From a virus, in the UHGV virus genome UHGV-1357302: DNA of 42,329 bases. One strand, given 5' to 3'. The notes under the pieces were generated by a model, which searched no databases, was not told where the DNA came from, and saw only the letters and a list, made by a program, of their open reading frames with translations. Of this stretch, positions 1 through 42,329 are shown in pieces. Each line of letters begins with the position of its first letter. The stretch's first letter is position 1. Position numbers and translations under genes: made by a program.

Positions 1-36
1 TTAGAATTCAAAATACTATAGAGAGAAGGAATATAA

Positions 37-567
37 ATGGCTAATGAAGCAAAGGTAGCGGCTAAAGGTATTGATATTATTTTACTTTTCCGTTTGCTAA
101 AAAAATCAAAAGAGGAAGCAGCATGGAAATTAGCTTTCCAGACAGAACATGAAAATACAAAAACAAAAGATAGTGACTCCGTGGCCACTAAAGATGGTCC
201 GATTCGTATCCCAGGATCATTGGAAATTGATTTTTCAGCAACATCTATTTTATCAGTCGGTGATCCGTATGTTGATCAACTAGAAGAAGCTTTAGACAAT
301 GACGATATTATTGAAATTTGGGAAATCAACAAAGCAGAAAAAGGCACAGGAGATAATGCTGACAAATACAAGGCAACCTATTACCAAGGATATGTAACAT
401 CATTTGGTAAATCGCCTAATGCTGAAGACACCGTAGAAGTTTCATTAGAATTTGGTATCAATGGTAAAGGTGCAAAAGGATTTGCAACATTAACTGCTGA
501 TCAAGAAGAAGTAGTTCAATATGTCTTCAAAGATACGACTATTGAAACAGCTGATCCGGGAAAGTAG
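37..567 (+). CDS. phage major tail protein (zero-frame product)
   Basis: 176-aa ORF with GAAGGA RBS 7 nt upstream of the ATG. It sits directly after the head-tail joining genes (by wrap-around) and before the Ig-like ORF, the G/GT chaperone pair and the tape measure, which is the canonical siphovirus position. Composition is typical of phi13/TP901-1-type major tail proteins (recall, not searched). Confidence 0.7.
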   Translation: MANEAKVAAKGIDIILLFRLLKKSKEEAAWKLAFQTEHENTKTKDSDSVATKDGPIRIPGSLEIDFSATSILSVGDPYVDQLEEALDNDDIIEIWEINKAEKGTGDNADKYKATYYQGYVTSFGKSPNAEDTVEVSLEFGINGKGAKGFATLTADQEEVVQYVFKDTTIETADPGK

Positions 568-629
568 ATAGCCCTTCTGTGGGAAGTGTAACTCCTACAG
601 TCGATGGGGCTTCTATTGAATTAAGCTAA
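558..629 (+). other. putative -1 programmed frameshift site (G GGA AAG, 558-564) plus 21-codon -1-frame extension (564-629) of the major tail protein
   Basis: The slippery X XXY YYZ heptamer spans the last two sense codons (GGA AAG) just before the TAG stop at 565-567. The -1 frame then reads VDSPSVGSVTPTVDGASIELS and stops at TAA 627-629. The extension is paralogous to the one after the major capsid gene at 40868-40933. Confidence 0.45.
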
Positions 630-644
630 GAAAGGAAAATAAAT

Positions 645-1103
645 ATGGTGAATACTTTTAAAATTTATAAAGGCCAAACCGAAGTTGTTTCCGGCACATC
701 ACCTTTAACTATAACAGGAATGGAACCTAACACCTCTGTGCCAGTTGGTGAGTACCAAGTAACTCGTGTTGTTAATGGGAAAGAATCAGAGCGAGTAGAT
801 ATTCCAGCTTTTAAAACATTGTCTATTGCTGTAACTGGCTTAGAGTTTTCTCCTAAAACATCAACAGCAGATGCGGGTACTGCAGGTAGCCGACAAATCA
901 CAGCAACTGTCTTGCCTGAAAATGCAACCAACAAAAAAGTAACCTATAAGATTACGCCTGAAACAGAAGGTCTTGCTGTCTCTGAAACAGGAAATATTAC
1001 TTGGACAGAAGCGGTACCGGCTGGTGTTTATACTACAACAGGAACAACAGAGGAAGGTAAAAAAACAGCTCAACACACCTTAACATTGAATAATCAAGCT
1101 TAA
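645..1103 (+). CDS. Ig-like (Big_2-type) domain protein, probable tail or capsid decoration
   Basis: 152 aa with its own RBS (AAAGGAAAATAAATATG). The segment ITATVLPENATNKKVTYKITPE...GNITWTEAVPAG fits the bacterial Ig-like group 2 consensus. It lies in the same frame as the major-tail -1 extension, separated from it by a single TAA. Confidence 0.6.
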   Translation: MVNTFKIYKGQTEVVSGTSPLTITGMEPNTSVPVGEYQVTRVVNGKESERVDIPAFKTLSIAVTGLEFSPKTSTADAGTAGSRQITATVLPENATNKKVTYKITPETEGLAVSETGNITWTEAVPAGVYTTTGTTEEGKKTAQHTLTLNNQA

Positions 1104-1158
1104 AATATAAATTTAGAGGGCAGCTTAGCGGCTGTCCTTTTCTTATGGAGGAAAAGGC

Positions 1159-1509
1159 ATGCAAATCGAAATTAAAGGAAAAAAATATAACTGTATTTTT
1201 GGAGTCAAGTTTATTCGTGAATTGGATAAGCAGCATGGGGTAGTTCGCAATGATGTAAATCTTGGGATGGGACTAACAACATTATTACCGCAGCTAGTAA
1301 GTGGAAATATCGTTGTTTTATCTGATGTACTCTACACAGCTACCATTACGGAAAAAAGTAGACCTTCTAAGGATGAAGTAGATGAGTTCGTTGAAACTGT
1401 GGATGATATTGAGGCATTATTTGATGAAACGTTGAAATACTTAGAAGAAAGCAATGCGGGAAAGTTAACGGTCAGAAATTTCAAGAAAGCTCTGATGGAG
1501 AACAAGTAA
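1159..1509 (+). CDS. tail assembly chaperone (gpG-like)
   Basis: 116-aa ORF between the major tail protein and the tape measure, with RBS GGAGGAAAAGGCATG. It contains the slippery heptamer G GGA AAG at 1458-1464. Confidence 0.6.
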   Translation: MQIEIKGKKYNCIFGVKFIRELDKQHGVVRNDVNLGMGLTTLLPQLVSGNIVVLSDVLYTATITEKSRPSKDEVDEFVETVDDIEALFDETLKYLEESNAGKLTVRNFKKALMENK

Positions 1510-1871: not shown

Positions 1872-4800
1872 ATGATGGAACAATATTCAGTAGAAGCAAT
1901 ACTTATTGCCACTGATAAAACGTTTAGTAGCACGATGAGTAGCGCTGAGCGTTCAATGGTTGGTGTAAACAAACAATCTGGTGAACTAGGTGATGGACTG
2001 GATAAAAGTACCACTAAAGGTAATCAATTGGGTAAGTCAATTCTTAGTATTGGAGCAGGCGTGGGCGCTGTAAAATTAGTATCTACGGCCGTAAATATGG
2101 TTAAGGACTCTGTTGAAGGAGCGATTAACCGTTTTGATACGTTGAATAAATATCCTGTAGTTATGAAAGCTCTAGGTTACTCAACAGAAGATGTAGATAG
2201 ATCAATGACTAAGTTAAGTGATGGGATTGATGGGCTTCCTACATCGTTAGATGAAATCGTATCAAATACGCAACAGTTAGCAATTTCAACTGGTAGCTTG
2301 AGTAAAGGAACTGACACAGCTATTGCATTAAATGATGCCTTTCTTGCTTCTGGAGCTTCAACTGCTGATGCAACTCGTGGTATGCAACAATATATTCAAA
2401 TGCTCGGTAAGGGTGAAGTTGATATGCAGTCTTGGCGAACATTACAAGAAACAATGCCGATTGCGATGGATAAAGTTGCTAAGTCTTTCAAAGAACAAGG
2501 TGTAAACTCAGTTAACCAATTATATGATGCCTTAAAAGAAGGAGATATTACATTTAATGAGTTCAATAATCGTTTGATTGAATTGGATAAAGGTGTAGGC
2601 GGTTTTGCGGACCTAGCAAAGAAAAACTCAAAGGGTATCAAAACATCATGGGCAAATATTAAAACAGCCACCGTTAAAGGTGTAACTACAGTAATTAAAT
2701 CATTTGATGAACTATCCAAAGCAGTGACAGGAAAAAACATTGCCGAAAATTTAGATTCTTTAAAAAATGTAGTGAATATAACTTTTAAGGCAATCGATGC
2801 AGCGATTCAATCAACTATTCCATTGATGAAACTATTCGGAAAAGCTATTACGTCGGTAGGTACAGCCTTAACACCATTACTGCCAACAATTGCCAGTTTT
2901 GCTGCCACTTTTACAGCATTGAAAGTAATTCAGCAAGTGACAGGTTATATAAAACAATCTGAATTGGCAATCAAAGCTTATACAACCGCAATAAGTTTAT
3001 ACAATGGAATATCAAAACTGGCAACGTTGTCTACCACAGCACTCGGAAGAGCATGGATGTTAAACTTAGCAGCCGATAAAGCCAATTCTGCAGCAATAGC
3101 AATAAAAACTGGTCTTTTAGTGGCGCAAAATACAATCGTTGGTGTTTTGACAGGAACAATTAGTTTAGCTACAGTAGCTACAACTGTTTTTAGTACCGCT
3201 ATGAAATTGTTGATGGGCCCTATTGGTTGGGTAACAGCTGCAATAGGAGGACTAGTAGCTGTAGGGGTAAACTTGTGGAAATGGTTAAATAAGGAAACTG
3301 AATCAACTAAGGCAGTTAAAAAAGAACAAGAAAACCTTATGAAAACCACAGATGACTTGATTAAAAAGAATCAAGAACATGCACAATCCCGAAAAGATGA
3401 AGCTATTGAGTTAGAAAATACTAAAGAAAAATATAATTCAATGATTTCTGAAATGGCAACGCTCGCTGCCAAAGAGAAATTAAGTAACGGCGAGAAAAAA
3501 CGTATGACAGAAATTGTTGAAGAGTTGAACGGTAAAATGACAGGTTTAAACTTAGTTTACGATGAACAAAGTAATAAACTTTCTGAAATGCCAGGTAAAA
3601 TTCAACAACAAATGGACGCATATAGCGCATTAGATAAAGCTTCAAAAGCACAAGAAGATATCAATAAGATGTTGCAGCAAAGAAATGATAATGAAGCAAA
3701 ATTAATGGAAATCAATGCAGCTAGGGAAAAATGGAATCAGACATTAAAAGAATCTGGCGGGAATACAAAAGAAGCCCGTGAAAATATAGCTGAATTAGGT
3801 GAACAAGAAAAAGTTCTAATGGGCGTTCAAGAAGATTTGAGAAATGATATTATAAATACTGCAAAAACACATGAATCTGCAATGCAAACAGCTAGTCAAG
3901 CTGTAGCAAATGGAGTTTTAGAGCAGACGGTTTCTTACAATGCGTTAAGTGGTAAAACAAAAGAGACTATGGATGCTATGCGTGCTGAATACACTTCTCT
4001 TGAAACAAAAGTGGGTAGCGCCTTTGATGTTATTGAGCAAAAGCAGGCTATTTCAGTTGATCAGATGGCTGCTAACTTACAGAAGAACCAAGAAGCTGTT
4101 GCACAGTGGGGACAAAATATTTCAACTCTTGCAGAACGACATGTTGACCAGGGGTTATTGGAACAACTTAGAAAAATGGGTCCAGAGGGTGCAGCACAAG
4201 CAGCAGAGCTTGTTAATGCATCAGATGAACAATTACAACGCTTAAATGATGTTTATCGTAATACAGGCGAAACTTCCATGAACGCAATGAAAGAAGGTTA
4301 CCAGTTAGGTAAAAATGGTGTTAATGAGGAAATAGCAAGCTTAATCCCAACACAAAAAGATACATTAATGACACAGATTAAAAATACAAATTTTAACGAT
4401 ATTGGTAGAAGTGTTACTGAAGACTTTAAAGCAGGAATTGAGAATGGTAGAAATGCAGTAGCAGAAATGACCAAAGGAATTGTTCCACAAATGGGAACCG
4501 ATATGAAAGGTGAAGTTGAAAAAGCTAATTTCCCTGATATAGGTAAAGCTATCCCTCAAGGTCTAGAGAAAGGTATTGGAGCTAATAAACAATTACCTGT
4601 AAAAACATCTAATCAAATGATTGATGATGTTGTTTCTGGTGCCAGAAAAGGTTTAGATTCTCACTCTCCTTCTCGTGTATTTCACTCAATTGGTGAAGAT
4701 GTTGATTCTGGATTATCAAACGGTATCGAACAAAACGCAATGAATCCAGTAAGAGCTGTTGAGTCTATTGTTGATAAAATAATTTCTGCAATGGATAAAT

Positions 4801-5282
4801 TGCCATCAGAAATGAATTCTATCGGAGCAAATGCAATTGATGGATTGACTAATGGTATTAATGCCAATGCGAATAGTGCTTTAGCTGCAGCAAGAGGTGT
4901 GGCAGATCAAATTGTAAGTACAATGAAAAGTGCTATGGATATTCATTCTCCATCACGTGTAATGCGTGATGAAGTAGGTAAAATGATTCCAGCAGGAGTA
5001 GCGGTTGGTATTGATAAATATTCAAACTTTGTGGAAAAATCTATGCAACGACTAAGTAAAAAAGTAGCCATGCCAGCGCTGGATAATTTAAATTCAAATC
5101 TGTCATTTAGTGGAGGATCACAAAGCTTAGCATTTGCTGGAGATGTATCTTCAAAATTGACTGTAGAGGTACCTGTTATTTTCGATAGTTCAGAGGTTGC
5201 AAGGGTTATTGCTAAACCAATGAGTAAAGAATTGCAGAATCAACAAGATAAAAAGAATGTTTCTTTAGGAAGGAGGCGCTAA
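1872..5282 (+). CDS. tail tape measure protein
   Basis: 1136 aa with RBS GGAAAGGAGGAAAATG. It has long coiled-coil and Ala/Gly-rich segments, a central hydrophobic block (about residues 300-470), C-terminal duplicated HSPSRV motifs, and the standard position after the G/GT chaperones. Confidence 0.9.
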   Translation: MMEQYSVEAILIATDKTFSSTMSSAERSMVGVNKQSGELGDGLDKSTTKGNQLGKSILSIGAGVGAVKLVSTAVNMVKDSVEGAINRFDTLNKYPVVMKALGYSTEDVDRSMTKLSDGIDGLPTSLDEIVSNTQQLAISTGSLSKGTDTAIALNDAFLASGASTADATRGMQQYIQMLGKGEVDMQSWRTLQETMPIAMDKVAKSFKEQGVNSVNQLYDALKEGDITFNEFNNRLIELDKGVGGFADLAKKNSKGIKTSWANIKTATVKGVTTVIKSFDELSKAVTGKNIAENLDSLKNVVNITFKAIDAAIQSTIPLMKLFGKAITSVGTALTPLLPTIASFAATFTALKVIQQVTGYIKQSELAIKAYTTAISLYNGISKLATLSTTALGRAWMLNLAADKANSAAIAIKTGLLVAQNTIVGVLTGTISLATVATTVFSTAMKLLMGPIGWVTAAIGGLVAVGVNLWKWLNKETESTKAVKKEQENLMKTTDDLIKKNQEHAQSRKDEAIELENTKEKYNSMISEMATLAAKEKLSNGEKKRMTEIVEELNGKMTGLNLVYDEQSNKLSEMPGKIQQQMDAYSALDKASKAQEDINKMLQQRNDNEAKLMEINAAREKWNQTLKESGGNTKEARENIAELGEQEKVLMGVQEDLRNDIINTAKTHESAMQTASQAVANGVLEQTVSYNALSGKTKETMDAMRAEYTSLETKVGSAFDVIEQKQAISVDQMAANLQKNQEAVAQWGQNISTLAERHVDQGLLEQLRKMGPEGAAQAAELVNASDEQLQRLNDVYRNTGETSMNAMKEGYQLGKNGVNEEIASLIPTQKDTLMTQIKNTNFNDIGRSVTEDFKAGIENGRNAVAEMTKGIVPQMGTDMKGEVEKANFPDIGKAIPQGLEKGIGANKQLPVKTSNQMIDDVVSGARKGLDSHSPSRVFHSIGEDVDSGLSNGIEQNAMNPVRAVESIVDKIISAMDKLPSEMNSIGANAIDGLTNGINANANSALAAARGVADQIVSTMKSAMDIHSPSRVMRDEVGKMIPAGVAVGIDKYSNFVEKSMQRLSKKVAMPALDNLNSNLSFSGGSQSLAFAGDVSSKLTVEVPVIFDSSEVARVIAKPMSKELQNQQDKKNVSLGRRR

Positions 5283-6212
5283 ATGTTATACAACTTTATT
5301 GATGTAAATGAACAACAAACAAAAGCCTCTTTGCCTTCGGAAGCCATGAATTTTAATGGTTCCTTTTTAGAAGATTTAGTTCCAGGTTATAGAACATTAT
5401 CTGTTGTTGGAAGAGAGTTAGCTCCTACTGAGATACAAAGCTACCAATTGGGAATTCGTGATGGAATGCGACATGTTTATGCTCGTATTCCGGAAAGAGA
5501 ATTAGCAGTTAAATTCAAAGTTGAGGCTAACTCTAACGAAGCGTTTAGGGATTCTTTTAACAGACTAAACGTTGCTTTGTTTACAGAAAAAGATGTACAG
5601 ATTTGGTTTAATGATGAACCAGAAATGCTTTGGTCGGGTAGTAAATCAGACATTGATGCAGTTCCTGAAGGATTGAATCGTGTCGTTGGTACATTTACAA
5701 TCTTGTTGAATAATCCATATAAATATACTCGAAGCGATGCTACTAGTGTTATGTGGGGTTCTACAGAAATAACGTTTCAGGCTAACTATCTTATGGGTAA
5801 TACTGGATCAGGGGCTGTTGACTTACCTATTGTTATCGAAGGTGGGGCTTATTGGGGTTCTACCATGATTACTTTTCAAAACCGTTCCTATCTAATGGGA
5901 GATAATGGTCAAGAAGTGAAGCCGATTGAAATATATCCAACTGTCGAAGGGTTAAAAGTAAAACCGATTATTACTATAAAAGGTACTGGTAGAGGCGTGT
6001 GGATAAAAACTAGAAGCGATACTATTGATATTGGTGATTTTGATAAATCAGAAATAGTGATTGATACAGAACAGTTTAATATTACGAAAAATGGGAAGCC
6101 AATGATTCGTCCTATGAACGATTTTTATATTTATCCAAATGAGCCACTATACATCCAAGCGAAAGACAGTACTTTTAATCTAACTATTCGATATCCAAAT
6201 CGTTTCTTATAG
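5283..6212 (+). CDS. distal tail protein (Dit, siphovirus tail component)
   Basis: 309 aa. Its ATG overlaps the tape-measure stop (TAAATG). It lies immediately after the tape measure and before the tail endopeptidase-like gene. Confidence 0.7.
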   Translation: MLYNFIDVNEQQTKASLPSEAMNFNGSFLEDLVPGYRTLSVVGRELAPTEIQSYQLGIRDGMRHVYARIPERELAVKFKVEANSNEAFRDSFNRLNVALFTEKDVQIWFNDEPEMLWSGSKSDIDAVPEGLNRVVGTFTILLNNPYKYTRSDATSVMWGSTEITFQANYLMGNTGSGAVDLPIVIEGGAYWGSTMITFQNRSYLMGDNGQEVKPIEIYPTVEGLKVKPIITIKGTGRGVWIKTRSDTIDIGDFDKSEIVIDTEQFNITKNGKPMIRPMNDFYIYPNEPLYIQAKDSTFNLTIRYPNRFL

Positions 6213-6228
6213 GAGGTGTTGCTAAAAT

Positions 6229-8247
6229 ATGTTGATGGCAATGGATTTAAAAAGAGAATACACGGCAGTTTTAGATAACGCTTATAATGTTGGATATGAA
6301 AAAATTGAAAACCAAATAGGGAATCTAGAATTTTCAATGCCGTTGGATGATCCTAAAAATGAATTTTTGCAAGAAATGTTATGGGTCGAATTAACAGATA
6401 ATGAAAATGAATATATAGGATTATACCGTGTTATGCCTTCAACGGTTCGCAAAGATGCTAGTAACAATTCAATCACGTATACGGCAAATGAAGCCCTGTG
6501 TACTTTGCTAGACACAGTTCTTTTTGGTTATCATGAACTAGTGAATCGAAAAACGATTGATGTTATTAACTATCTTTTGAATAAACAAAGGACAAAACAC
6601 TGGGTTTTAAAAAAATGTGAATTCACTCGGTATTTTAGTTATGCATGGGAAAATGAAAATGGTCTTGCTGATGCCTTGTTTAGTATTCCTCAAGCATTTG
6701 ATGAAGACTATATGTGGCAATGGAATACCAAAGTTTATCCATTCGAATTATCTTTAGTGAAGCCACCAAAAGAACCTATCGCTCGTATTCAAGAAGGATA
6801 TAACATGCAAGGCTTTGAGATTGAAAGAGATCCTAACAATTTAGTTAATCGAGTTTATCCTTTAGGTGCTGGTGAAGGCGTCAATCAGATAAATATTAAA
6901 TCGGTAAATAAAAATATTCCTTATGTAGAAGATGCAAAGTCTATAAAAGAACATGGTTTAGTTGAATATGTTTGGGTAGACCAACGATTCACAGTTCCAC
7001 AAGCTTTAAAAGACAATGCAATCAACATGTTAAAAAAATGGGCACAGCCTAAAATTTCTTGGGATGTTACTGCGGCTGATTTATTGAAATTAACAGATGA
7101 ACCTTTAAGCATTGATAAGTTAAGACAAGGAACTGTAATTATGATTAACACAGATGATTTTGGAAGTATAAATTTGCGTATTAAAAAAGAGACAAAACAG
7201 GATGTATTCGGCGCACCACAAGATATTCAGCTAGAGCTTGGTAATTTATCTGACGATTTTACTACGACAATGTCTGATTTGAAACGTAAACAGGAAATAA
7301 ATGAGACGTATTCGCAAGGCGCAACGAATATTTTGAACTACAGTTATCAAGATAACTGCGAAAAGGCATACCCAGCAGAAATTGAATTCTTCTTAGATGA
7401 TGATGTATTTCATGTAAATACTGTGGAACTGACTTTTAAAACTAAGCGGTATCGTGGTTATACAAAAGCCGTAAAAGGCGGAGGAGCTACAGTAAAAAGT
7501 ACTTCAGCTGGAGGAGCTTCAACACAAACTAGTTCAGCTGGTGGCGGAAGTGTTGTTTCAAGTTCAGCTGGAGGAGGTTATTCTAGTGGATCCACCACAG
7601 GTGGTGGTGGAGGTAGTATTCAATCTAGTTCTGTAAATGGTCAAAGCTCACAAACAAGTTCAGCAGGTGGAGATCATAATCACCTAGTTGCATCTAATAA
7701 TGGTAGCACTGAATCAAGTGCATTTTATCGAGAAATGGATGCGGGGTCAGGTATGAGATTTAGACTAATGTCGACTGCATCAACAGATTGGTACACAAAG
7801 ACGAGCTCAGGTAACCATACTCATAATGTGACTACACCGGCACATTCCCACACAGTGAACACACCTAACCATAGTCACAATTTTAATATTTCTATACCAA
7901 ATCATACTCACAGCATATCGGTTCCTAGCCATAGCCACCAAGTAAGAATACCGGCACATACACACCAAATTACTTTACCTGATCATAGCCATCCATTAGA
8001 ATGGGGGATTTATGAGGCACCAAGTAGCGCAACTAGTGTTGATATAGTTGTAGATGGTACCACCATTCCAGTTCATGATACTAGCCAACAAAGACTAAAC
8101 ATTGTTAATTACCTTAGGAAAACTAGTGGCGGTAAAATCTCTAGAGGTAATCATACAATCAAGATAATACCTAACAAACTTGCACGAATTGAAGCGCAAG
8201 TTATTTGTCGTGTTTTTATACAATCACAATTAGGAGGACAATTTTAA
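6229..8247 (+). CDS. tail-associated lysin / prophage tail endopeptidase-like protein (Tal) with Gly/Ser-rich and HxH repeat region
   Basis: 672 aa. The N-terminal 350 aa resemble the prophage-tail (phage minor structural protein N-terminal) family by composition and position after Dit. The C-terminal half carries (S/T)SAGG decapeptide repeats and seven PxH(S/T)H nonapeptide repeats. Confidence 0.7.
   Translation: MLMAMDLKREYTAVLDNAYNVGYEKIENQIGNLEFSMPLDDPKNEFLQEMLWVELTDNENEYIGLYRVMPSTVRKDASNNSITYTANEALCTLLDTVLFGYHELVNRKTIDVINYLLNKQRTKHWVLKKCEFTRYFSYAWENENGLADALFSIPQAFDEDYMWQWNTKVYPFELSLVKPPKEPIARIQEGYNMQGFEIERDPNNLVNRVYPLGAGEGVNQINIKSVNKNIPYVEDAKSIKEHGLVEYVWVDQRFTVPQALKDNAINMLKKWAQPKISWDVTAADLLKLTDEPLSIDKLRQGTVIMINTDDFGSINLRIKKETKQDVFGAPQDIQLELGNLSDDFTTTMSDLKRKQEINETYSQGATNILNYSYQDNCEKAYPAEIEFFLDDDVFHVNTVELTFKTKRYRGYTKAVKGGGATVKSTSAGGASTQTSSAGGGSVVSSSAGGGYSSGSTTGGGGGSIQSSSVNGQSSQTSSAGGDHNHLVASNNGSTESSAFYREMDAGSGMRFRLMSTASTDWYTKTSSGNHTHNVTTPAHSHTVNTPNHSHNFNISIPNHTHSISVPSHSHQVRIPAHTHQITLPDHSHPLEWGIYEAPSSATSVDIVVDGTTIPVHDTSQQRLNIVNYLRKTSGGKISRGNHTIKIIPNKLARIEAQVICRVFIQSQLGGQF
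7501..7680. repeat. imperfect tandem DNA repeats (agttcagctggWggMgg..., 30-nt period) encoding (S/T)SAGG-containing decapeptides
   Basis: Copies start near 7501, 7531, 7561 and 7647. Translation reads TSAGGASTQT / SSAGGGSVVS / SSAGGGYSSG / SSAGGDHNH. Confidence 0.6.
7795..8000. repeat. tandem coding repeats specifying HxH motifs (NHTHNV, PAHSHTV, PNHSHNF, PNHTHSI, PSHSHQV, PAHTHQI, PDHSHPL)
   Basis: Read directly from the translation of 6229..8247. There are seven consecutive 9-10-residue units, each with a His-x-His pair. Confidence 0.6.
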
Positions 8248-8421
8248 ATGAGATTAACAGTAAAACTAATTAGCAAACAAGAAGAATTTATAATTAATGA
8301 TGAATCAGGTAAAACATTAGATGATTATTTTGCAGAACTAATTGATAATAGTTCGCCATTCATCAAGATAGGAAATCGTATTTTACAAAAAGCCACGATT
8401 GAATACATTAATGCAGAATAG
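8248..8421 (+). CDS. small hypothetical protein (57 aa)
   Basis: ATG overlaps the preceding stop (TAAATG) and an AGGAGG lies 9 nt upstream. Sequence is MRLTVKLISKQEEFIINDESGKT... It is not in the supplied ORF track because it is under 60 aa. Confidence 0.4.
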   Translation: MRLTVKLISKQEEFIINDESGKTLDDYFAELIDNSSPFIKIGNRILQKATIEYINAE

Positions 8422-8432
8422 GAGTGATAAAC

Positions 8433-32232: not shown

Positions 32233-32234
32233 CG

Positions 32235-32348: not shown

Positions 32349-32395
32349 ACCCTTATCAATAGCTCCCTTCCAGGGATAGCTATTGATAAAAGGGT
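32349..32395. repeat. imperfect 20-bp-arm palindrome (cccttatcaatagctccct / agggatagctattgataaaaggg)
   Basis: Inverted repeat centred near 32370, next to the iterons. It is not followed by a T-tract, so it is not a standard terminator. Confidence 0.5.
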
Positions 32396-32476
32396 GGAGC
32401 GTGACAAAAATAGAATTTGAAAGAACGAAAAATATTGGACTATACCAAAATAAAATAACAAGAAATGAGGATTGTT

Positions 32477-32872: not shown

Positions 32873-33102
32873 ATTGGTCCAATGTATTTATAGATATTCA
32901 ACAATGGATGGCTGATTCTAACCATATATCTAAAAAATATCCAATCACTTCAGATAAATATTGGGATTGGTTAATACAGTCAATCGGAGAATTAGGAAAT
33001 CGCTATAACAATCATCCAGTTGTATTAGCATTCTTAACGGTATTGATCAAAATTCAAGAAGATAGTTATAAACAGGTTGTGGGAGGTAATGCCAATGGCT
33101 GA
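32869..33102 (+). CDS. hypothetical protein (77 aa)
   Basis: ATGA overlap with rusA. Confidence 0.4.
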   Translation: MNWSNVFIDIQQWMADSNHISKKYPITSDKYWDWLIQSIGELGNRYNNHPVVLAFLTVLIKIQEDSYKQVVGGNANG

Positions 33103-33628: not shown

Positions 33629-33682
33629 ACATGCCCTATTCAAGATGTTACTATGGTAGCGTGAAATAAATACGTAAAAATA

Positions 33683-33709
33683 AAGACATCTCTTTCGAGG
33701 TGTCTTTTT
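33683..33709 (+). terminator. rho-independent terminator between ArpU and terS
   Basis: Stem aagacatctc / gaggtgtctt (10 bp, one G-U pair), loop tttc, then TTTTG. Confidence 0.55.
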
Positions 33710-33731
33710 GCATTGAAAGAAGGTGAATATC

Positions 33732-34256
33732 ATGGCTGAATCAAAGCAAAGCCAGTTGATTAATGAAATAGCTGATTTAGCATCAGATCTTATGAGTGAG
33801 TGGCCATCCACTCGAAATAAGCAAAAAGAATTCGTGTTAGCATATGTTTCAAATGGTTTTATCAATGGAACAGAGGCTGCAAAAAAAGCAGGGTATAGCG
33901 CTAAAACGGCAGGAACTATTGCTTCTAACTTATTAACAGGAATGAAAAAGTATGAACACATCCCTCCTGTTATTGAAGAACTGAAAAATGCTTATGATGA
34001 AAGAGCGATAGAATTATCTATTGCCTCGGGAACTGAAGTTTTGCAATATCTCACTTCTGTAATGCGTGGATCTCAAAAAGAGCAAACCTTAATCGGCCTG
34101 GGCGAAGGGGCTCAAGGATTAACTGATATTGATGTTGGAGCCAAAGAAAGGCTAAAGGCTGCTGAATTACTGGGCAAACGTCATGCGCTGTTCACTGATA
34201 AACAGGAGATTTCAGCGACCGAAATTGTAACAATAGTGGATGATGTTAATGAGTAA
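33732..34256 (+). CDS. terS: terminase small subunit
   Basis: ATG MAESKQ with GAAGGTGA RBS. HTH-like FINGTEAAKKAGYSAKTAGTIASNLL, typical of phage TerS. Overlaps the terL start. Confidence 0.6.
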   Translation: MAESKQSQLINEIADLASDLMSEWPSTRNKQKEFVLAYVSNGFINGTEAAKKAGYSAKTAGTIASNLLTGMKKYEHIPPVIEELKNAYDERAIELSIASGTEVLQYLTSVMRGSQKEQTLIGLGEGAQGLTDIDVGAKERLKAAELLGKRHALFTDKQEISATEIVTIVDDVNE

Positions 34257-35595
34257 AGTAGTATTATCAGAAATTTTGCTTGATCAGTTTAAACCATTTT
34301 GGGTAGCCTCTAAGAGAAAAAAACATTTAAGATATGTTTTAAAAGGGGGCCGTGGCTCTGGTAAATCATTTCATATTCCAATGCGAATCATGTTAGATAT
34401 TATGGAATATCCTGTTTCTGCTCTGGGAGTTAGGAAAGTTCAGAATACAATACTAAAATCTGTATATGCAAACTTTAAGGGTGCTGCAAACGCTATGGGC
34501 GTTCGGCATCTTTTTCGGTTTGTAGATTCTAAGTTAGAAATTACTTACAGGCCACGGGGTAACAAAATATATTTTGCTGGTGCTGACGATCCCGAAAAAA
34601 TAAAATCTATAAAAGATGCAGATTTCCCTTTAGCTATTATGTGGATAGAAGAACTTGCAGAATTTAAAACCGAAGATGAGGTTACAACAATTGAAAATTC
34701 GGTATTGCGTGAGGAGTTAGAAGGGAAAATTGTAAACGAATCTAAGCGAAAGAATGTTTATCCATTTGATTACAGCTTTTACTATTCTTATAACCCGCCT
34801 AAACGTCGTCAGTCATGGGTTAATAAGAAATATGAATCAAGCTTCATAGATAATAATACCTATGTTCATCATTCGACATATTTAGGAAATCATCACTTAT
34901 CGAAAAAATTTATCGAAGAAGCAGAAAATGTGAAAGCTAATAAGCCTTTAAAATATCGATGGGAATATTTAGGAGAAGCAATTGGGTCAGGTGTTGTACC
35001 TTTCGGTAATCTAAAAATTGAGAAAGGCTGTATCACTGATGAAATGGTTGCTAATTTTGATAATATCAGAAATGGGCTTGACTTTGGCTACGCTACTGAT
35101 CCGCTAGCATTTGTTAGATGGCACTATGACAAAAAGAAAAATGGCATTTATGCTATTGACGAAATCTACGGAGTGAAAATCAGCAATCGAGAATTAGCTA
35201 AAAAAGTAAAAGCAAAAGGATATGAATCAGAAAGAATTGGAGCAGATTCCGCTGAACCTAAATCGATTGCTGAGCTTATTAATGAACACTCGATAAAGAA
35301 ATTATATGGAGTGAAAAAAGGACCTGATTCAGTTGAGTATGGTGAAGAATGGTTAGACGATTTAGATTTTATTTGTATAGATCCTATAAGAACACCAAAT
35401 ATAGCACATGAATTTGAAAATATTGATTATCAAACCGATAGAGATGGTAATCCTAAGCCAAGGCTTGAGGATAAAGATAATCATACAATTGATGCTACTC
35501 GATATGCATTTAGTGAGGATATGAGAAGTAAACGTGAATCAGCAAACGTTAAGAAAACTATTAATACATTCAAAAAGTTAGGATTAAGTAGGTGA
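34240..35595 (+). CDS. terL: terminase large subunit (PBSX/pac-type)
   Basis: Walker A YVLKGGRGSGKSF. ATPase and C-terminal nuclease acidic residues. 451 aa. Confidence 0.85.
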   Translation: MMLMSKVVLSEILLDQFKPFWVASKRKKHLRYVLKGGRGSGKSFHIPMRIMLDIMEYPVSALGVRKVQNTILKSVYANFKGAANAMGVRHLFRFVDSKLEITYRPRGNKIYFAGADDPEKIKSIKDADFPLAIMWIEELAEFKTEDEVTTIENSVLREELEGKIVNESKRKNVYPFDYSFYYSYNPPKRRQSWVNKKYESSFIDNNTYVHHSTYLGNHHLSKKFIEEAENVKANKPLKYRWEYLGEAIGSGVVPFGNLKIEKGCITDEMVANFDNIRNGLDFGYATDPLAFVRWHYDKKKNGIYAIDEIYGVKISNRELAKKVKAKGYESERIGADSAEPKSIAELINEHSIKKLYGVKKGPDSVEYGEEWLDDLDFICIDPIRTPNIAHEFENIDYQTDRDGNPKPRLEDKDNHTIDATRYAFSEDMRSKRESANVKKTINTFKKLGLSR

Positions 35596-35599
35596 TAGA

Positions 35600-37213
35600 G
35601 TGGATAATAAATTATTGAACGGTTCTAGGTTTGATAAAGAAGCAAATCTAGTTTATAAAGTGCCAGTAAGCAAACTGCCTACTCGAATAATGCAATATTC
35701 GAACGGAGAAAAAGAAGAAGTCATAGATTTTGAGCACCAGGATGTTTTTAATATGATTGTTAAATTTGTTCAACACCATAAAGAAAAACAAGTTCCTCGC
35801 CTTAAAGAATTAAAGCGTTATTCTTTAGCGCAAAATAATATTAAGTTCACTGAAGATAAAAGTGAAAATCGAGCAGATAACAAGATTGCAAATGATTGGG
35901 CTAGATTTATTGTCAATTTTAAAAAAGGCGTGTTACTAGGTAATCCTTTGAAGTACAATGGCGATAAAACTATTGCTGATAAAATTAATGATTTTTCTAG
36001 CAAATCAAATGAAGATTATCATAATCAGTTAATGTTAGACGACTTGCTTGTATATGGAAGAGCATTTGAATATATCGGTAGAGATGAATACGGTAAAGAA
36101 ATGTTAGCTAAATTCAGTCCAGAAGAGACGTTCGTTATTTATGATACAACGACAAACAAGAATTCTGTATGTGCTATTCACTGTTATGATCTGGAGTTTA
36201 ACGATGAAACATTTAGTTATATCGATATTTATGCCAATGATGGTTATTTTTATCAACATGAATCAAAAAATCAAGACTATGAACAATCTAAATTAATTGA
36301 TAAATATCAAACTTTCTTTGATTCTATTCAAGTAAATGAATGGATTAACAATGAAGAGCGTTTAGGAGACTTTGAAACAGTTTTAGATAATATAGATGCA
36401 TATGATTTATCACAATCTTCAATGGCTAATTTCCAACAAGATTCATCTGAAGCTTATTTAGTTATTAAAGGAAACCCCGAAACTGCTATAGATGATGAAG
36501 AAGGTAATTCTGCAGTAGACGTTTTAAACGACATGATAAAAGCTAGATTGTTAATATTAGGGGATAAGAAATATTATGGTGATGGTCAAACAGGTAGCGA
36601 TCCTGATGCATACTATTTGAAAAAAGAGTATGATACACAAGGAACAGAGGCATATAATGACCGTTTGGTTTCTGATATGTTGCGCTTCACTTCTTTAATT
36701 GATTTTACCGATGAAAATATTGGTAGTAATCAGTCTGGCATTGGATTTAGATTTAAAGGTTGGGGAAGTGACAATGATAGAAAGAACAAAGAAAGAATGG
36801 TCAAAAAAGCAATCATGAGAAGACTAAGATTACTAACTTATTCTTGGTCATTGAAAGATAACTTAAATAAACCAACAGGGCTTGCTGAGAAAGTTAAGTC
36901 TTTTTTTGTATCTAGAGATAATGATAAAGAGCTGCTTTTTGAAAAGGTGAATGCTATAGAGATATTATTCACACCAAACGTTCCTCAATCAGATAAAGAA
37001 ATTATGGAAGTTATTGCCGGAATGGTTGGAATTGTTTCAGATGAAACACTTTGCGAAATGGCGGCTAAATTGACTGGTGTTCCTGTTCAAACAGAACTAA
37101 AGAGGTTGAAAAAGGAAAATCAGCCAGATACATTATCCGATGAAGATACAGCGAAGCTTAAAGAAAAACAGGCAGAGTTTTTGGCGAATCAGTCGGAAAC
37201 AGAGGAGGACTGA
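35600..37213 (+). CDS. portal protein (SPP1 gp6-like)
   Basis: 537 aa directly after terL, with the acidic C-terminal tail typical of portals. Confidence 0.8.
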   Translation: MDNKLLNGSRFDKEANLVYKVPVSKLPTRIMQYSNGEKEEVIDFEHQDVFNMIVKFVQHHKEKQVPRLKELKRYSLAQNNIKFTEDKSENRADNKIANDWARFIVNFKKGVLLGNPLKYNGDKTIADKINDFSSKSNEDYHNQLMLDDLLVYGRAFEYIGRDEYGKEMLAKFSPEETFVIYDTTTNKNSVCAIHCYDLEFNDETFSYIDIYANDGYFYQHESKNQDYEQSKLIDKYQTFFDSIQVNEWINNEERLGDFETVLDNIDAYDLSQSSMANFQQDSSEAYLVIKGNPETAIDDEEGNSAVDVLNDMIKARLLILGDKKYYGDGQTGSDPDAYYLKKEYDTQGTEAYNDRLVSDMLRFTSLIDFTDENIGSNQSGIGFRFKGWGSDNDRKNKERMVKKAIMRRLRLLTYSWSLKDNLNKPTGLAEKVKSFFVSRDNDKELLFEKVNAIEILFTPNVPQSDKEIMEVIAGMVGIVSDETLCEMAAKLTGVPVQTELKRLKKENQPDTLSDEDTAKLKEKQAEFLANQSETEED

Positions 37214-37218
37214 TTTAG

Positions 37219-38157
37219 ATGTCCTATTTAAAAGATCGTGAAGATGCTTGGATCAAAGAGCAGATGAAGCTAGATCGTAATAGAGAAAAAGAAATTGTTA
37301 AACAGCTTCAAAATGCTATTGATGCGATTCAAAAGGAAATTGAAGCTAACTGGGATAGATTTTCCAATGGCCAAAAGATTACGATTAGCGAAGCAAGAAA
37401 AATGGCTAATAAGATGGACGTAAAACGCTTTGAGAGAAAAGCGAAGGAGTATGTAAAAAATAAAGACTTTAGTCCACAGGCTAATAAAGAATTGAAAATC
37501 TATAACTTAGTAATGCGAGTGTCTAGATTAGAGCTATTAAAGTCTCAAATTGGCTTAGAACTAATCACGTTGTTTGATGAGCTAGATAAGTGGGGATATT
37601 CTCAGTTAACTGAAGCCGCAAAAGATGAATATTTAAGACAGGCGGGAATACTAGGCGAAACCGTTAAAGAAAATTATTCGTCTAAGGTTAGAAAAATTGT
37701 TAATGCCTCATTCAAATCAAGTGACTTCCCTTCGTTTAGTGATAACATTTGGCAAAATTTTGTTGAAATGAAAGCTGATTTAGAAAAAACAATCACTCAG
37801 GCAATCACTCAAGGTAAAAATCCAAGAGCAGTAGCAAAAGAGATGGCTAAATTTTTAAAGCCTAACCAATTAAATATAAGATACAAGCTAAATAGGCTAA
37901 TGATGACTGAAATATCTGGTGTTCAAACAGATATTCAAAAGCAAAGCTACTTGGATGCAGATATCAAAGAATATGATTACATTGCAGAACCGTTTGCCTG
38001 TGAAATATGTAAAAAAGTAGCTAAGGGTAGTCCTTATAAAGTACTAAAGATGAAAAAAGGAATTAATGCTCCTTATATGCATTCTCATTGTAAGTGCTCT
38101 ACTGTCCCTAAAGTTAGTGAGGATTATGAGAAGTCGCTGAAAGAAAGAGGTTTGTAA
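37219..38157 (+). CDS. minor head protein (SPP1 gp7 / Mu F-like head morphogenesis protein)
   Basis: 312 aa following the portal. A Cys cluster near the C-terminus (CEICKK...HCKC). Confidence 0.65.
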   Translation: MSYLKDREDAWIKEQMKLDRNREKEIVKQLQNAIDAIQKEIEANWDRFSNGQKITISEARKMANKMDVKRFERKAKEYVKNKDFSPQANKELKIYNLVMRVSRLELLKSQIGLELITLFDELDKWGYSQLTEAAKDEYLRQAGILGETVKENYSSKVRKIVNASFKSSDFPSFSDNIWQNFVEMKADLEKTITQAITQGKNPRAVAKEMAKFLKPNQLNIRYKLNRLMMTEISGVQTDIQKQSYLDADIKEYDYIAEPFACEICKKVAKGSPYKVLKMKKGINAPYMHSHCKCSTVPKVSEDYEKSLKERGL

Positions 38158-38427
38158 ATGGATAATCTATATAAATGCAATCAATGTCATAAACACACTC
38201 CTTTAATTAGAAAATCTGAAAATATCACGAAGGATGTCGAACACCATTATGCTGAATGTGCAAATTGTGGATATAAAGCGACAATTATGTATATGAATAC
38301 CGAAATCAAGTTATTAATGTATGAACAAAGAAAAACAAAATTTGGTACAAAAAAGAAAGGTAAATTGACAGAAAAGCTAAACAGACTAATTTCTCAATTA
38401 AGAAAAGAAGTCGAGGGATCAAGTTGA
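38158..38427 (+). CDS. small zinc-ribbon protein (CxxC...CxxC)
   Basis: 89 aa: CNQCHKH...CANCGY. The ATG abuts the previous stop. Confidence 0.4.
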   Translation: MDNLYKCNQCHKHTPLIRKSENITKDVEHHYAECANCGYKATIMYMNTEIKLLMYEQRKTKFGTKKKGKLTEKLNRLISQLRKEVEGSS

Positions 38428-38645
38428 AAAGTTATTCTTTAGTTTATTGGTCAGGTGTTGACGATGAAACTGGTGCGTTTAAGCAAATAGATTGTCTCAT
38501 TAATGATGAAACAGTTCAGAAATTGCTTGAAGGTAAACCTAAATTTATCTCAATTATTATTGATGATGGTGAACAAATGTTAATTCAAACGGATAATATC
38601 AATCAGATAAAACAAGTTTATGAAAAATACGGCAGAAAGGCGTGA
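38424..38645 (+). CDS. hypothetical protein (73 aa, TTG start)
   Basis: Overlaps the previous stop. No ATG alternative nearby. Confidence 0.3.
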   Translation: MKSYSLVYWSGVDDETGAFKQIDCLINDETVQKLLEGKPKFISIIIDDGEQMLIQTDNINQIKQVYEKYGRKA

Positions 38646-38839
38646 TTCTATGAATGACGATCCTTACGATTACTTAGATGCTGATTATGAAGAATATTTA
38701 AAGAGAGAAGAGTCTAACAAACGTTAGGCTTTTTATATTGCCTTCTTACTGCTTACAGGCACTAAAGAGAAAGCTGTTTCGATTGATAGGCGTAACTTAT
38801 CAAATATATCGGGTAGCGGCGTAACCGTGGAGGATAATC

Positions 38840-39481
38840 ATGAAAACAAAAAAACTATTATTGCCAATGCATTTACAATTCTTTGCTGATAATCCAGATA
38901 CTGGCGCTGGGGATACGGACCAACCGGCCGGAGGTCAAGAGCAAACACCGCCAGAAGATGATAGTAAAGATAAAGGCAATGGAAAAACGTTTTCTCGTGA
39001 TGAAGTAGCAAAAATGATTGCTGCTGAAGTATCAAAAACAAAAGAAGCTTGGGAAAAAGAGCTTCAAGAGAAACAAGAAGAAGCCGATAAATTAGCCAAA
39101 ATGAATGATCAGGAGAAAAATGATCATGAAAAGCAGAAGTTACTTGAAAAAATCAAAGAGCTGGAAAGTGCGCAAAACTTAGCTGAAATGTCTAAGACTG
39201 CTACTACAATGTTTTCTGATAAAGGTATTCAAGCGACTGAGGGATTACTTACGTTAGTAGTAAAGGAAACAGCAGAGGAGACATCTGAAAATGTTAAAGC
39301 TGTTGTAAAACTTATCGAAACTGAACGTGAAGCGATTAAAGCAGATTTTGAGAAACGAATTGGTTCTAAACTCCCACTTGATGGAAATGCTGATGCTAGC
39401 TTATCTCGTGGTGCACAAATGGCTAAACAAGCAAATAATCAAAATAAAGCGCCTGAAAATAATCCTTGGGCGACAAATTAG
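38840..39481 (+). CDS. head scaffolding protein
   Basis: RBS GGAGGATAATCATG. The N-terminus MKTKKLLLPMHLQFFAD carries the LQFFA motif characteristic of scaffold and prohead proteins. Highly charged coiled coil. Immediately upstream of the capsid gene. Confidence 0.65.
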   Translation: MKTKKLLLPMHLQFFADNPDTGAGDTDQPAGGQEQTPPEDDSKDKGNGKTFSRDEVAKMIAAEVSKTKEAWEKELQEKQEEADKLAKMNDQEKNDHEKQKLLEKIKELESAQNLAEMSKTATTMFSDKGIQATEGLLTLVVKETAEETSENVKAVVKLIETEREAIKADFEKRIGSKLPLDGNADASLSRGAQMAKQANNQNKAPENNPWATN

Positions 39482-39493
39482 GAGGAATTTTGA

Positions 39494-39835
39494 ATGGTTT
39501 ATGTAAAGAAAACTCAAACATATCAAGATATTAATTTTTTAAAGAGCGAAAAATTCATTTCATTTACAAAACAAGTTGATGAAACAACTGAAGGGGTAGA
39601 AAAAGGAGTGCTACCTGCAGGGTCAGTGTTCCCTAAAAATGATGCTACAGCAGAAGGTATTACAATTAATGATGTTGATGTATCAAATGGACCACAACCA
39701 GTGGGCGTAATTGTTGAAGGGCATGTTCTTATTAAACGATTACCAGTTGAGCCATCATCGGAAGCTCAAAAAGCAATGCGTGAAGTTAAATTTTATGATG
39801 CAAACGGTAAAATGCTAGCAGTTCCAACTGCTTAA
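39494..39835 (+). CDS. hypothetical head protein (113 aa) between the scaffold and the major capsid protein
   Basis: RBS GGAGGAATTTTGAATG. Decoration or auxiliary capsid protein by position only. Confidence 0.4.
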   Translation: MVYVKKTQTYQDINFLKSEKFISFTKQVDETTEGVEKGVLPAGSVFPKNDATAEGITINDVDVSNGPQPVGVIVEGHVLIKRLPVEPSSEAQKAMREVKFYDANGKMLAVPTA

Positions 39836-39857
39836 TAAATAATTAGGAGGATTTCAA

Positions 39858-40871
39858 ATGGCAAATATTGCAGAATTATTTTCACAGAAAAATGTATTAG
39901 ATTATGTAAATAATCGTCAAGCACCAGTTTTATTAGGAGAAACATTGTTTCCAGCACGTAAGGTACAGGGGTTAGAGTTTGATGTTTTAAAAGCGGGATC
40001 TAAAATCCCAACAATTGCAAGCGTTCATGCGTTCGATACAGAAGCTGAGATTGCTTCACGTGTTGGATCGAAAACAGCTCAAGAGTTAGCGTTCATCAAA
40101 CGTAAAATTCAATTAAAAGAAAAAGATTTAATGGCCTTACGCAAGCCTCGTGATGCAGCAGAACAACGTTTCTTAGAACAAGAAGTGTACAACGATGTAG
40201 ATGCAATGGTTGGATCTGTAAATGCGCGTGTTGAAAAGATGCGAATGGAAGTATTAGCAAATGGAACAGTTACATTAGACGAAAATGGTTTAGATTTAGT
40301 AGTTGATTACGGCGTACCAAAAGAACATCAAGCTACAGCTGACTTTACTGCACCTGAAACAGATGTTATTGGGCTATTGACTGAATGGGCAAGCGCTTTG
40401 GATACTACGCCTACTCGTATCTTAACATCTACAAAAGTACGCAACGCGATTCTTCAAAACACTGGGATTAAAGCATATTTTAAAGATGCAGGATTATTGC
40501 CAACAATCGGCTCTTTAAATCAAATGTTCCAACAGTTTGGATTGCCAACGCTTGTAACTTATGATGCGAAATACAACAAAGAAAATGAAAAGGGCGTATT
40601 AGTAAAAGAACGTTATTTCCCAGAAAACAAGCTAGTCATGTTTGGTGATGAAAACCCAGGAGAGTCTATTTTCGGTGTAACACCAGAAGAATCTCGTTTG
40701 TTATCAACTGGATCAAATAACTACACAGTAGGCAATATTTTCGCAATGGTATACGAATCTAATTTAGACCCAGTTGGAACATGGACTAAAGCATCAGGAA
40801 CAGCTCTACCAAGTTTCCCAGAAGCTGACAATGTATTCCAAGCTACTGTCTTACCTGATTCAAAAAAATAG
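39858..40871 (+). CDS. major capsid protein (zero-frame product)
   Basis: 337 aa with RBS AGGAGGATTTCAAATG, following the scaffold. Ends in ...LPDSKK with the A7 run before TAG. Confidence 0.8.
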   Translation: MANIAELFSQKNVLDYVNNRQAPVLLGETLFPARKVQGLEFDVLKAGSKIPTIASVHAFDTEAEIASRVGSKTAQELAFIKRKIQLKEKDLMALRKPRDAAEQRFLEQEVYNDVDAMVGSVNARVEKMRMEVLANGTVTLDENGLDLVVDYGVPKEHQATADFTAPETDVIGLLTEWASALDTTPTRILTSTKVRNAILQNTGIKAYFKDAGLLPTIGSLNQMFQQFGLPTLVTYDAKYNKENEKGVLVKERYFPENKLVMFGDENPGESIFGVTPEESRLLSTGSNNYTVGNIFAMVYESNLDPVGTWTKASGTALPSFPEADNVFQATVLPDSKK

Positions 40872-40933
40872 AAGCCCCGAAAGTTGAAAGTGTAACACCA
40901 ACAACTGACGGGGCCTCAATCGTATTAAGTTAG
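40862..40933 (+). other. putative -1 programmed frameshift site (A AAA AAA, 40862-40868) plus 21-codon -1-frame extension (40868-40933) of the major capsid protein
   Basis: The -1 frame reads IEAPKVESVTPTTDGASIVLS then stops at TAG 40931-33. It is paralogous to the tail-protein extension (SVTPT(V/T)DGASI(E/V)LS), and most nucleotide differences are synonymous in this frame. Confidence 0.45.
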
Positions 40934-40944
40934 GTGGTGTTTAA

Positions 40945-41277
40945 ATGCCTAGCATTACAGAGGACATAACAAAACTGTTAAATAGTCCAGCTAATGAAAA
41001 GTTAGAAGTGATTGAGCGACGAACTCGAGAACGTCTCAATAGTTTGTTAAATGTATCGGAAACACCAAGCAAATTTGATTCGATTATATACGAGGTCGTT
41101 TTAAAAAGATTTAACCGGATTGGTCAAGAGGGTATGATTTCATATTCTCAAGAAGGTTTAACAATGGCCTTTCCTGATTCTGATTTCTCTGAATATGAAA
41201 AACAAATTAACGATTATTTGAATGAAGAAAAAGAAGTGCAATATAAAAAACTTCGTGGAAAGGCCCGATTCGTATGA
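40945..41277 (+). CDS. head-tail connector (gp6-like adaptor)
   Basis: 110 aa immediately after the capsid gene. Typical position and size. Confidence 0.5.
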   Translation: MPSITEDITKLLNSPANEKLEVIERRTRERLNSLLNVSETPSKFDSIIYEVVLKRFNRIGQEGMISYSQEGLTMAFPDSDFSEYEKQINDYLNEEKEVQYKKLRGKARFV

Positions 41278-41609
41278 GATATACAGATGAAATTACCTTT
41301 GTAAAAAAATCTTCAGAATCGCATTATGATCCAAACTCAGGGGAATGGATTGAAGAAGAACCGTTTAGAAAAACTACTGATGTCAATTTAACTGATATTG
41401 GTACAGATCGTTCTATTACTATTTTCGGAAGCATTAAAGAAGGGGCTAAGGTCATTAGGACACAGCCCCTTTTTGTTATTCCAGAATTTGATTACATTGA
41501 GTTTGAGGGTAAAACTTGGGAAGTTATTACAAGTAGAGTTCCTGCATTAAGAAATAGCTTGATTGTTCATGAGGTGATTATTGATGGCAAGAAGTCAAGT
41601 AAGAATTAA
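41274..41609 (+). CDS. head closure / head-tail joining protein
   Basis: 111 aa. ATGA-coupled to the previous ORF. Confidence 0.45.
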   Translation: MRYTDEITFVKKSSESHYDPNSGEWIEEEPFRKTTDVNLTDIGTDRSITIFGSIKEGAKVIRTQPLFVIPEFDYIEFEGKTWEVITSRVPALRNSLIVHEVIIDGKKSSKN

Positions 41610-41964
41610 TGGATTAGCTGGAATTTCTAAAAAACTAAAGAGAAATGCTCAACTTGATGATGTGAAAAAAGTTGTTAGAAATAACACAGCAGAATTAACC
41701 GCCAATATGCAAGCTGAAGCCGGAAAAGTGTTAACTGGACACTGGGAAGGTAAAAAGTTTGTTAAACCTACTGGGGCAACAAAAAGAAGTATCGTTATGA
41801 GGCTTTCGAACAATGGTTTTTCTGGGCATACAGGACCAGGAACGGAGTACGCACCGTATTTAATAAACGGTACGAGATTTATGGTGAAACGTGATTTCTT
41901 TTTACCACCGCTGAAACAACAAAAAGTGAAATTTAGAACGGATTTGGAAAGGTTGATGAAATGA
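41584..41964 (+). CDS. HK97 gp10-like tail-component protein
   Basis: [14 protein letters not shown] (the track's start is an upstream TTG). Position and size match the family. Confidence 0.45.
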
Positions 41965-42329
41965 TTAAAACAAGAGATCAATCAATCTTCGATGAAGTGT
42001 ATAAGAAGTGTCAATCACTGGGTTATGAAACCTACGATTATAAACCTATGAATGATGTAGGTTATCCATTTGTCGAATTAGAAGATACTCAGACACTGCA
42101 CCAAGCCAACAAGACTGATATTAAAGGTTCGGTTATATTGAATCTATCTGTATGGGGATTGGCAAAAAAACGTAAACAAATATCGGATATGGCTTCAGCA
42201 ATTTTTGCTGAGGCTCTATCTATTTCTGAAACGGAAGGTTATTATTGGTCGCTCAATATCCAATCAAGCGGTATTCGGTTAGTAGATGACATTTCGACTA
42301 ACACACCATTGAAGCGGGCAATGATATCT
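41961..42329 (+). CDS. tail completion protein (gp11-like), 3'-partial in this window
   Basis: ATGA-coupled. There is no stop before the window end. Reading on from position 1 adds LEFKIL and stops at TAG 19-21, just before the major tail gene RBS. Confidence 0.5.

Follow-up and report, generated by a model that had tools for sequence, protein, structure and literature searches.

Introduction

Does the viral record UHGV-1357302, a stretch of 42,329 nucleotides which is called the window in this paper, hold a whole phage genome, or is it a piece cut out of something longer? The question is raised by its two ends, because an open reading frame (ORF) runs up to the last base without a stop codon and appears to be continued from the first base. 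A reading made from the letters alone, hereafter the sequence-only reading, had proposed that the window closes on itself and is a complete, circularly permuted temperate phage genome. The comparisons described here lead to a similar answer, that is, with a probability of about 0.93 the window contains one unit length, no more and no less, of a phage genome in the attP form, opened at an arbitrary point, the phage being a temperate siphovirus of Enterococcus faecalis that belongs to the EFC-1/phiFC1/phiEf11 group. The DNA would then have come from the excised circle, from replication or from virions and not from an integrated prophage.

Continuity of the Record End and the Record Start

The frame starting with the ATG at 41961-41963 on the plus strand is open for 369 nucleotides (123 codons) up to base 42329, and past base 1 it reads TTA GAA TTC AAA ATA CTA TAG, that is, LEFKIL and a stop codon at 19-21. 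This is followed by the ribosome-binding site GAAGGA (25-30, plus strand), read directly and lying 6 nucleotides upstream of the ATG at 37, with which the gene for the major tail (tube) protein begins (37-567, plus strand, 176 amino acids; PF06199 Phage_tail_2, E = 7e-18; phrog_238, E = 3e-65). All of this is exactly as it had first been read. Here and below, gene functions were assigned by family scans (PF and phrog profiles) of the window ORFs. Stop codons constitute 6.8% of the plus-strand codons in the window, which gives a 123-codon open frame a p of about 2e-4, so the frame is a real coding sequence. The six-codon continuation, on the other hand, carries no weight by itself, because a stop within seven codons is expected by chance with a frequency of about 0.39; its weight comes from homology. 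The joined product of 129 amino acids spans positions 1-130 of the 131 positions of phrog_176, a tail terminator family, and is identical to gp14 of phage phiEf11 at 127 of 129 residues, without gaps, with equal length and with the LEFKIL C-terminus common to both. The record ends thus divide one tail terminator gene into its first 123 codons (41961-42329, plus strand) and its last six codons plus TAG (1-21, plus strand). The right-end genes had been listed as connector, head closure, gp10-like and tail completion genes preceding the major tail gene; this order holds, but the divided ORF is the tail terminator and the gene in front of it is the tail completion/Neck1 gp10-like gene.

The same continuity is found at the nucleotide level. 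The last 1500 and the first 1500 bases together give a single ungapped alignment of 3000 nucleotides with phiEf11 7585-10584 (96.6%), and this 3-kb junction also aligns as a single piece to each of phages IME197 and EFC-1; window bases 42329 and 1 are neighbouring bases in phiEf11 (9084/9085) and in EFC-1 (25453/25454), in the latter within the tail terminator gene gp43. In addition, 30 IMG/VR contigs contain the exact 39-mer that spans the join. EFC-1 (KJ608188/NC_025453, 40,286 bp) was deposited as circular, and its gene order is equal to that of the window around the whole circle. The join of the EFC-1 record (40285/1) falls at 15894/15896 of the window; since the two records are broken at different places, each spans the break of the other.

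Furthermore, three E. faecalis chromosomal contigs (L055, L056 and L057), which encode exactly the large terminase (TerL) of the window, cross the join without interruption: L057, a chromosomal prophage, is 99.98% identical over 15,612 nucleotides with 0 gaps, from window 29984 through the join to 3266, and the identities of L055 and L056 over the join are 98.1% and 96.8%, respectively. These contigs bear on the opposite explanation, according to which the window was cut from a bacterial chromosome within an integrated prophage and its end-to-start continuity is coincidental. Near-identical integrated prophages are indeed found in many E. faecalis chromosomes, and host genes continuing past the window ends had been named as the observation that would speak for such a slice; however, the sequence past each window end in the chromosomal copies is the other window end, and the family scans gave no host gene in the window.

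A terminal direct repeat of 5-400 nucleotides was searched for between the window ends and none was found; therefore, either the record was trimmed or an overlap was never present. Judged from the alignments, the window ends join without missing or duplicated bases. The break inside the tail terminator gene is an arbitrary opening of a circular assembly and not a physical end, and of the circular permutation that had been proposed the closure shows only this much.

attP, the Serine Integrase and Integration in radC

The attachment site gives evidence of another kind. The integrase region is 98.3% identical at the nucleotide level over 1.8 kb to the phiFC1 int/attP fragment AF124258.1, and the annotated 3-bp core of the phiFC1 attP corresponds to AGT at 14297-14299 of the window, the centre of an imperfect inverted repeat with the arms TTTTAGGTA (14272-14280) and TACCTAAAA (14315-14323), so that attP occupies 14272-14323. 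The integrase of 464 amino acids (14318-15712, minus strand), which had been recognized simply as an integrase, is a large serine recombinase of the phiFC1 type having a Resolvase catalytic domain, a Recombinase domain and a zinc ribbon (PF00239, PF07508 and PF13408). The phiFC1 integrase is one of the serine integrases in experimental use (PMC4015280). The order of lysin, moron and integrase genes had been taken as that of an excised genome with attP between the lysis and integration modules; this is borne out, except that attP is directly downstream of the integrase stop codon and all the morons are on the lysin side of it.

The exact window integrase is listed in 171 blocks of the sequence collection, and in all ten of the places shown, complete chromosomes among these, it is at the prophage edge beside radC, the flank on the integrase side consisting of a truncated radC, a HAD hydrolase gene, folC, yfhO and valS. 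On the lysin side of integrated copies are found the 3' fragment of radC, a cold-shock gene (csp) and the RNase J gene; the radC fragment is adjoined by an ORF of 82 amino acids (13949-14197, minus strand; phrog_15227, full length), which in the window is the last phage gene before attP on that side. A metagenome contig, ERZ28595554 scaffold_284, holds both prophage edges and is 100% identical to window 25712-14297 and 6889-14299. The homology of the integrated prophages to the window ends exactly at AGT, at 14297 on one side and at 14299 on the other, and attL in the ten loci and attR in locus L068 have only AGT in common. The four sites are read as ...ATCAA AGT GTAAATAAC... (attL), ...TTTATT AGT ATTGCTCAT... 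(attR), ...TTTATT AGT GTAAATAAC... (attP) and, as rebuilt from these, ...ATCAA AGT ATTGCTCAT... (attB), and the rebuilt attB encodes an intact RadC of 232 amino acids with the HNHPSG motif. While about 44 kb separate int from the lysin-side morons in the chromosomal copies, where each lies against half of radC, the two adjoin across an intact attP in the window. Because of this comparison of attP, attL and attR, the chromosomal slice is refuted, and its probability is practically nil. In the proposed mechanism, the phiFC1-type serine integrase would recombine attP with attB in radC, and excision would restore the intact radC.

The attP form is not confined to the window. Contig L070 (Logan ERR9629684_69) carries the same form with 99.99% identity over window 6889-19851 (12,963 nucleotides), and attP-form contigs (L048, L070 and L072) are found among several assemblies. 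Moreover, two independent metagenome contigs, IMGVR_UViG_3300045988_128147 (L049, 11248) and JAWETS010000022.1 (L004, 5122), end exactly at the AGT core (window 14297). Assemblers break at such a point if a sample holds a mixture of the attP and attL/attR forms, which suggests that excised and integrated forms are both present in the samples of these two contigs. JAWETS010000022.1 has been binned as a Veillonella metagenome-assembled genome (MAG), probably a binning error, and the integrase gave in the species-representative genome collection a single match of 99%, to a 5-kb contig labelled Veillonella MAG, and distant relatives. As to the integration site, in the complete chromosome CP136403.1 (L071, 7585-12557) the 82-amino-acid ORF is followed by a tyrosine integrase, a helix-turn-helix protein and a Mob_Pre relaxase in place of the radC 3' fragment, and a second mobile element seems to have been inserted at or beside attR there.

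An internal attP together with end-to-start continuity would also be seen if the window had been cut, as one unit, from a longer array of head-to-tail copies (two prophages in tandem or a concatemer formed during replication), and one attP-form metagenome contig (L072, ERZ28566985 scaffold_59, 66,853 bp) is about 1.6 unit lengths long. The window, however, is exactly one unit, with no overlap or gap against three reference phages. This is what the trimming of a circular contig should give, and a slice taken at random would very rarely show it, so such an array is extremely improbable. The 66,853-bp contig could itself come from a tandem lysogen, from an assembled concatemer or from two prophages joined into a hybrid.

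The prophages inserted in comK of Listeria and in sigK or spsM of Bacillus are reversible switches of the active lysogeny type. As the present prophage splits radC and precise excision rebuilds the intact 232-residue RadC, excision could conceivably be a similar switch on radC, the attP circle then being maintained as an episome. The sole hints are the attP-form contigs of several assemblies and the two other assemblies broken exactly at the att core, and ordinary spontaneous induction explains the same facts; such a switch is thus regarded as quite unlikely. A phage-plasmid was also considered and dropped, since neither partition genes nor plasmid replication genes were found in the window and integrated copies are abundant.

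Mosaicism and the Variable Early Region

A circle can also be closed wrongly, namely when related prophages residing in the same cell are assembled into a chimera through their shared modules; the genome as recorded would then not exist. Several observations are in favour of this: the genome is mosaic relative to EFC-1 and phiEf11; the closest integrated copy is 98.2% identical at 26.0-28.2 kb and has a replaced cassette at 28.2-30.0 kb, being 100% or 99.98% identical elsewhere; and related prophages often occur together in one E. faecalis strain, the chromosome LR962650.1, for example, having two copies of one cassette. Such mosaicism, however, is normal for this phage group, and independent sequences cover window 6889-25712 (100%), 6889-19851 over attP (L070), 29984 to 3266 over the join (L057) and 28909-38232 (L090). 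Consequently, a chimeric assembly is considered very unlikely.

The cassette at 26062-28241 (plus strand) consists of a 217-amino-acid protein, a tyrosine recombinase of 314 amino acids and a 190-amino-acid protein (PF02384 and PF00589), and recurs as the same trio in many different E. faecalis prophages. The first protein resembles only the N-terminal half of N6 DNA methylases (49% identity to residues 1-167 of a 438-amino-acid enzyme). The tyrosine recombinase comes in addition to the serine integrase; 1451 blocks of the collection list exactly this protein, and in the eight places shown it lies within E. faecalis prophages whose replication and packaging modules are unrelated, two of these places being in the chromosome LR962650.1. 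Next to the cassette, at 28229-29984, is a hypervariable stretch of small early ORFs, the gene content of which varies widely among ten related prophages shown that carry the exact primase of the window. This primase/helicase of 739 amino acids (PriCT_2 + AAA_25; ATG at 30013, or TTG at 29974 by the ORF tool; within 30013-32872, plus strand) is on record in 109 blocks of the collection.

DNA Packaging

The large terminase (34240-35595, plus strand) had been described as PBSX-like, which agrees with its domains, Terminase_3 of the PBSX family (PF04466) and Terminase_3C (PF17288). In its nuclease domain it resembles SPP1 G2P (structure 2wbn, E = 2e-81), and an alignment with TerL of the SPP1-like Bacillus phage Lurz2 that covers 94% of the protein shows about 60% identity. 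The small terminase (TerS; 33723-34256, plus strand; PF03592 Terminase_2) matches the SF6 G1P structures 3zqp and 3zqq (E = 2e-24), and the portal (35600-37213, plus strand) is of the SPP1 type (PF05133, E = 1e-81). SPP1 is the textbook pac/headful phage, in which headful packaging from pac yields terminally redundant and partially permuted DNA (PMC6316719). It is a virulent Bacillus phage, and although its packaging machinery and that of SF6 (TerL nuclease domain, TerS and portal) are akin to those of the window, the rest of its genome is unrelated; a pac site and headful cutting are predicted for the window phage.

By homology, headful packaging as in SPP1, and hence permuted virion DNA, is likely: concatemers would be packaged from pac by the SPP1/SF6-like TerS/TerL pair through the SPP1-type portal. 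The physical permutation contained in the original proposal is thus derived from the terminase. An alternative is that the assembled circle is complete but that the virion DNA has fixed ends, either cos or short direct terminal repeats. A circular assembly is compatible with any mode of packaging; the relationships of TerL to Lurz2 and SPP1 G2P, of TerS to SF6 G1P and of the portal to that of SPP1 all argue against fixed ends, which are held to be unlikely, if by no means negligible.

Among 50,697 deposited phage records, the nearest relative of TerL, that of phiFL3B, does not exceed 68% identity, yet several E. faecalis chromosomal contigs encode exactly this protein. On these matches, the packaging module of the window is one so far seen only in prophages.

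Points Weighing against a Complete Circular Genome

Some observations weigh against the view that the window is one complete, circularly permuted unit. First, the circular topology and the termini are deduced from assembled sequence. Second, belonging to a terminase family is a predictor of how DNA is packaged and not a proof. Third, no recombination directionality factor was identified, such factors being too diverse for family scans. Fourth, scaffold_284, the integrated copy which is 100% identical over 18.8 kb, is 44,319 bp long, about 2 kb longer than the window. This difference in length, considered as a possible sign that the window is incomplete, maps to the hypervariable stretch at 28229-29984 and looks like natural cassette variation, an assembly collapse or a chimera at that place being a less probable cause.

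Relationship to Known Phages

The closest known phage is EFC-1, to which 29,469 of the 42,329 window nucleotides align at about 89-99%. The two share the serine integrase and attP region (98.7%), the tail module and most of the replication genes. They differ in the large terminase and the portal N-terminus (34220-37083), the scaffold and capsid genes (39220-40891), the repressor/cro region, the fibre C-terminus and the early cassettes (26068-29983), and also in their morons, which are PBECR4 and Abi_2 genes in the window and the gene for a TIR protein in EFC-1. Identical bases amount to about 28 kb of 42.3 and 40.3 kb, that is, roughly 66-68% as estimated from alignment matches. By the conventions of the International Committee on Taxonomy of Viruses, about 95% nucleotide similarity delimits a species and about 70% a genus. 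On this estimate, the window phage is clearly a species different from EFC-1, at the borderline of the genus.

The comparison with phiFC1 is limited to the 1.9-kb fragment AF124258.1, in which there are a few substitutions in the lysin-side attP arm. In phiEf11 (NC_013696, 42,822 bp), the structural module from the portal to the tail has 94-97% identity and keeps the same order over the window join, whereas its integrase is a tyrosine integrase (PF00589 by annotation) and its lysis, replication and terminase genes are other ones, so that only 17.8 kb can be aligned to the window. The window phage is a new mosaic member of a well-known group and not an unusual phage.

Gene Organization

Packaging, head, connector, tail, lysis, lysogeny and replication modules were all found in the window. 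The head genes follow the portal on the plus strand as a Mu F-like minor head protein (37219-38157; PF04233), the scaffold (38840-39481; PF14265) and the major capsid protein (39858-40871; PF03864), with small ORFs interspersed among them from 35600 to 40871. The connector genes on the same strand are those for the head-tail adaptor (40945-41277; matches in the connector region to PF05135 and phrog_132), a head-closure-like protein (41274-41609; phrog_348) and the Neck1/tail-completion gp10-like protein (41581-41964; phrog_5), after which comes the divided tail terminator gene.

On the other side of the join, the major tail protein gene is followed, again on the plus strand, by a second gene annotated as a major tail protein (645-1103) and two tail chaperone genes (1159-1509 and 1602-1859), all three named after the collinear genes of phiEf11 and EFC-1. 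PF12363 Phage_TAC_12 matches a 116-amino-acid product of the corresponding chaperone-region genes in the three chromosomal contigs that cross the join, of which L057 is 99.98% identical to the window there. Then come the tape measure protein (1872-5282; PF20155 TMP_3, E = 4e-32), the distal tail protein Dit (5283-6212; PF05709 Sipho_tail), the tail-associated endopeptidase Tal (6229-8247; PF06605 Prophage_tail) and a tail fibre or phosphodiesterase-like receptor-binding protein (8424-10391; phrog_5793, phrog_19279 and phrog_2126). The lysis genes, also on the plus strand, are a holin (10395-10865; PF05105 Phage_holin_4_1) and an amidase endolysin (10819-11682; PF01510 Amidase_2; phrog_670), the coordinates of which are ORF-tool starts, the gene calls of relatives beginning slightly further in.

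Between the endolysin gene and attP is the moron cluster on the plus strand. At 12110-13851 a gene for a PBECR4 nuclease-like protein (12110-12643; PF18813, E = 6e-10; phrog_3446), which belongs to the Barnase/EndoU/colicin-like RNase fold, is followed 25 nucleotides downstream by a tRNA-Met(CAT) (12668-12741; ARAGORN) and then by a gene for an Abi_2 abortive-infection-like protein (12889-13851; PF07751, E = 8e-39; phrog_2158). This block is present in many prophages, and phage AE4_2, where it aligns to this segment of the lysis region, likewise has an annotated tRNA-Met. The RNA-nuclease-like gene and the phage-borne tRNA might form a tRNA-targeting defence or counter-defence pair.

Beyond the integrase, the lysogeny-control region (16206-18442; matches to PF06114, PF01381, phrog_87 and phrog_2967) contains a repressor switch, with genes for a 254-amino-acid protein (16206-16970), an M78/ImmA-like protease (17060-17620) and a CI-like helix-turn-helix repressor (17550-18053) on the minus strand and a divergent gene for a Cro-like regulator (18212-18442) on the plus strand. 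The replication and recombination genes (19878-25689, plus strand), which are 98% identical to EFC-1 4278-10432, encode an AAA_15/23 ATPase, an AAA_24 protein (Sak4-like by EFC-1 annotation), three proteins without a family match and a DEAD/ResIII helicase. After the early cassettes and the primase, a RusA resolvase gene (32465-32872, plus strand) precedes the packaging genes.

Significance

The closure itself brings no new biology and its significance is mainly bookkeeping: the window is to be regarded as an entire circular phage genome, in which the gene split by the record ends is one tail terminator gene. With the attP core (AGT, 14297-14299), the attB in radC and the module map now defined, prophage boundaries in E. 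faecalis genomes can be called correctly, and such calls are relevant because this integrase is very frequent in the genomes of that species.

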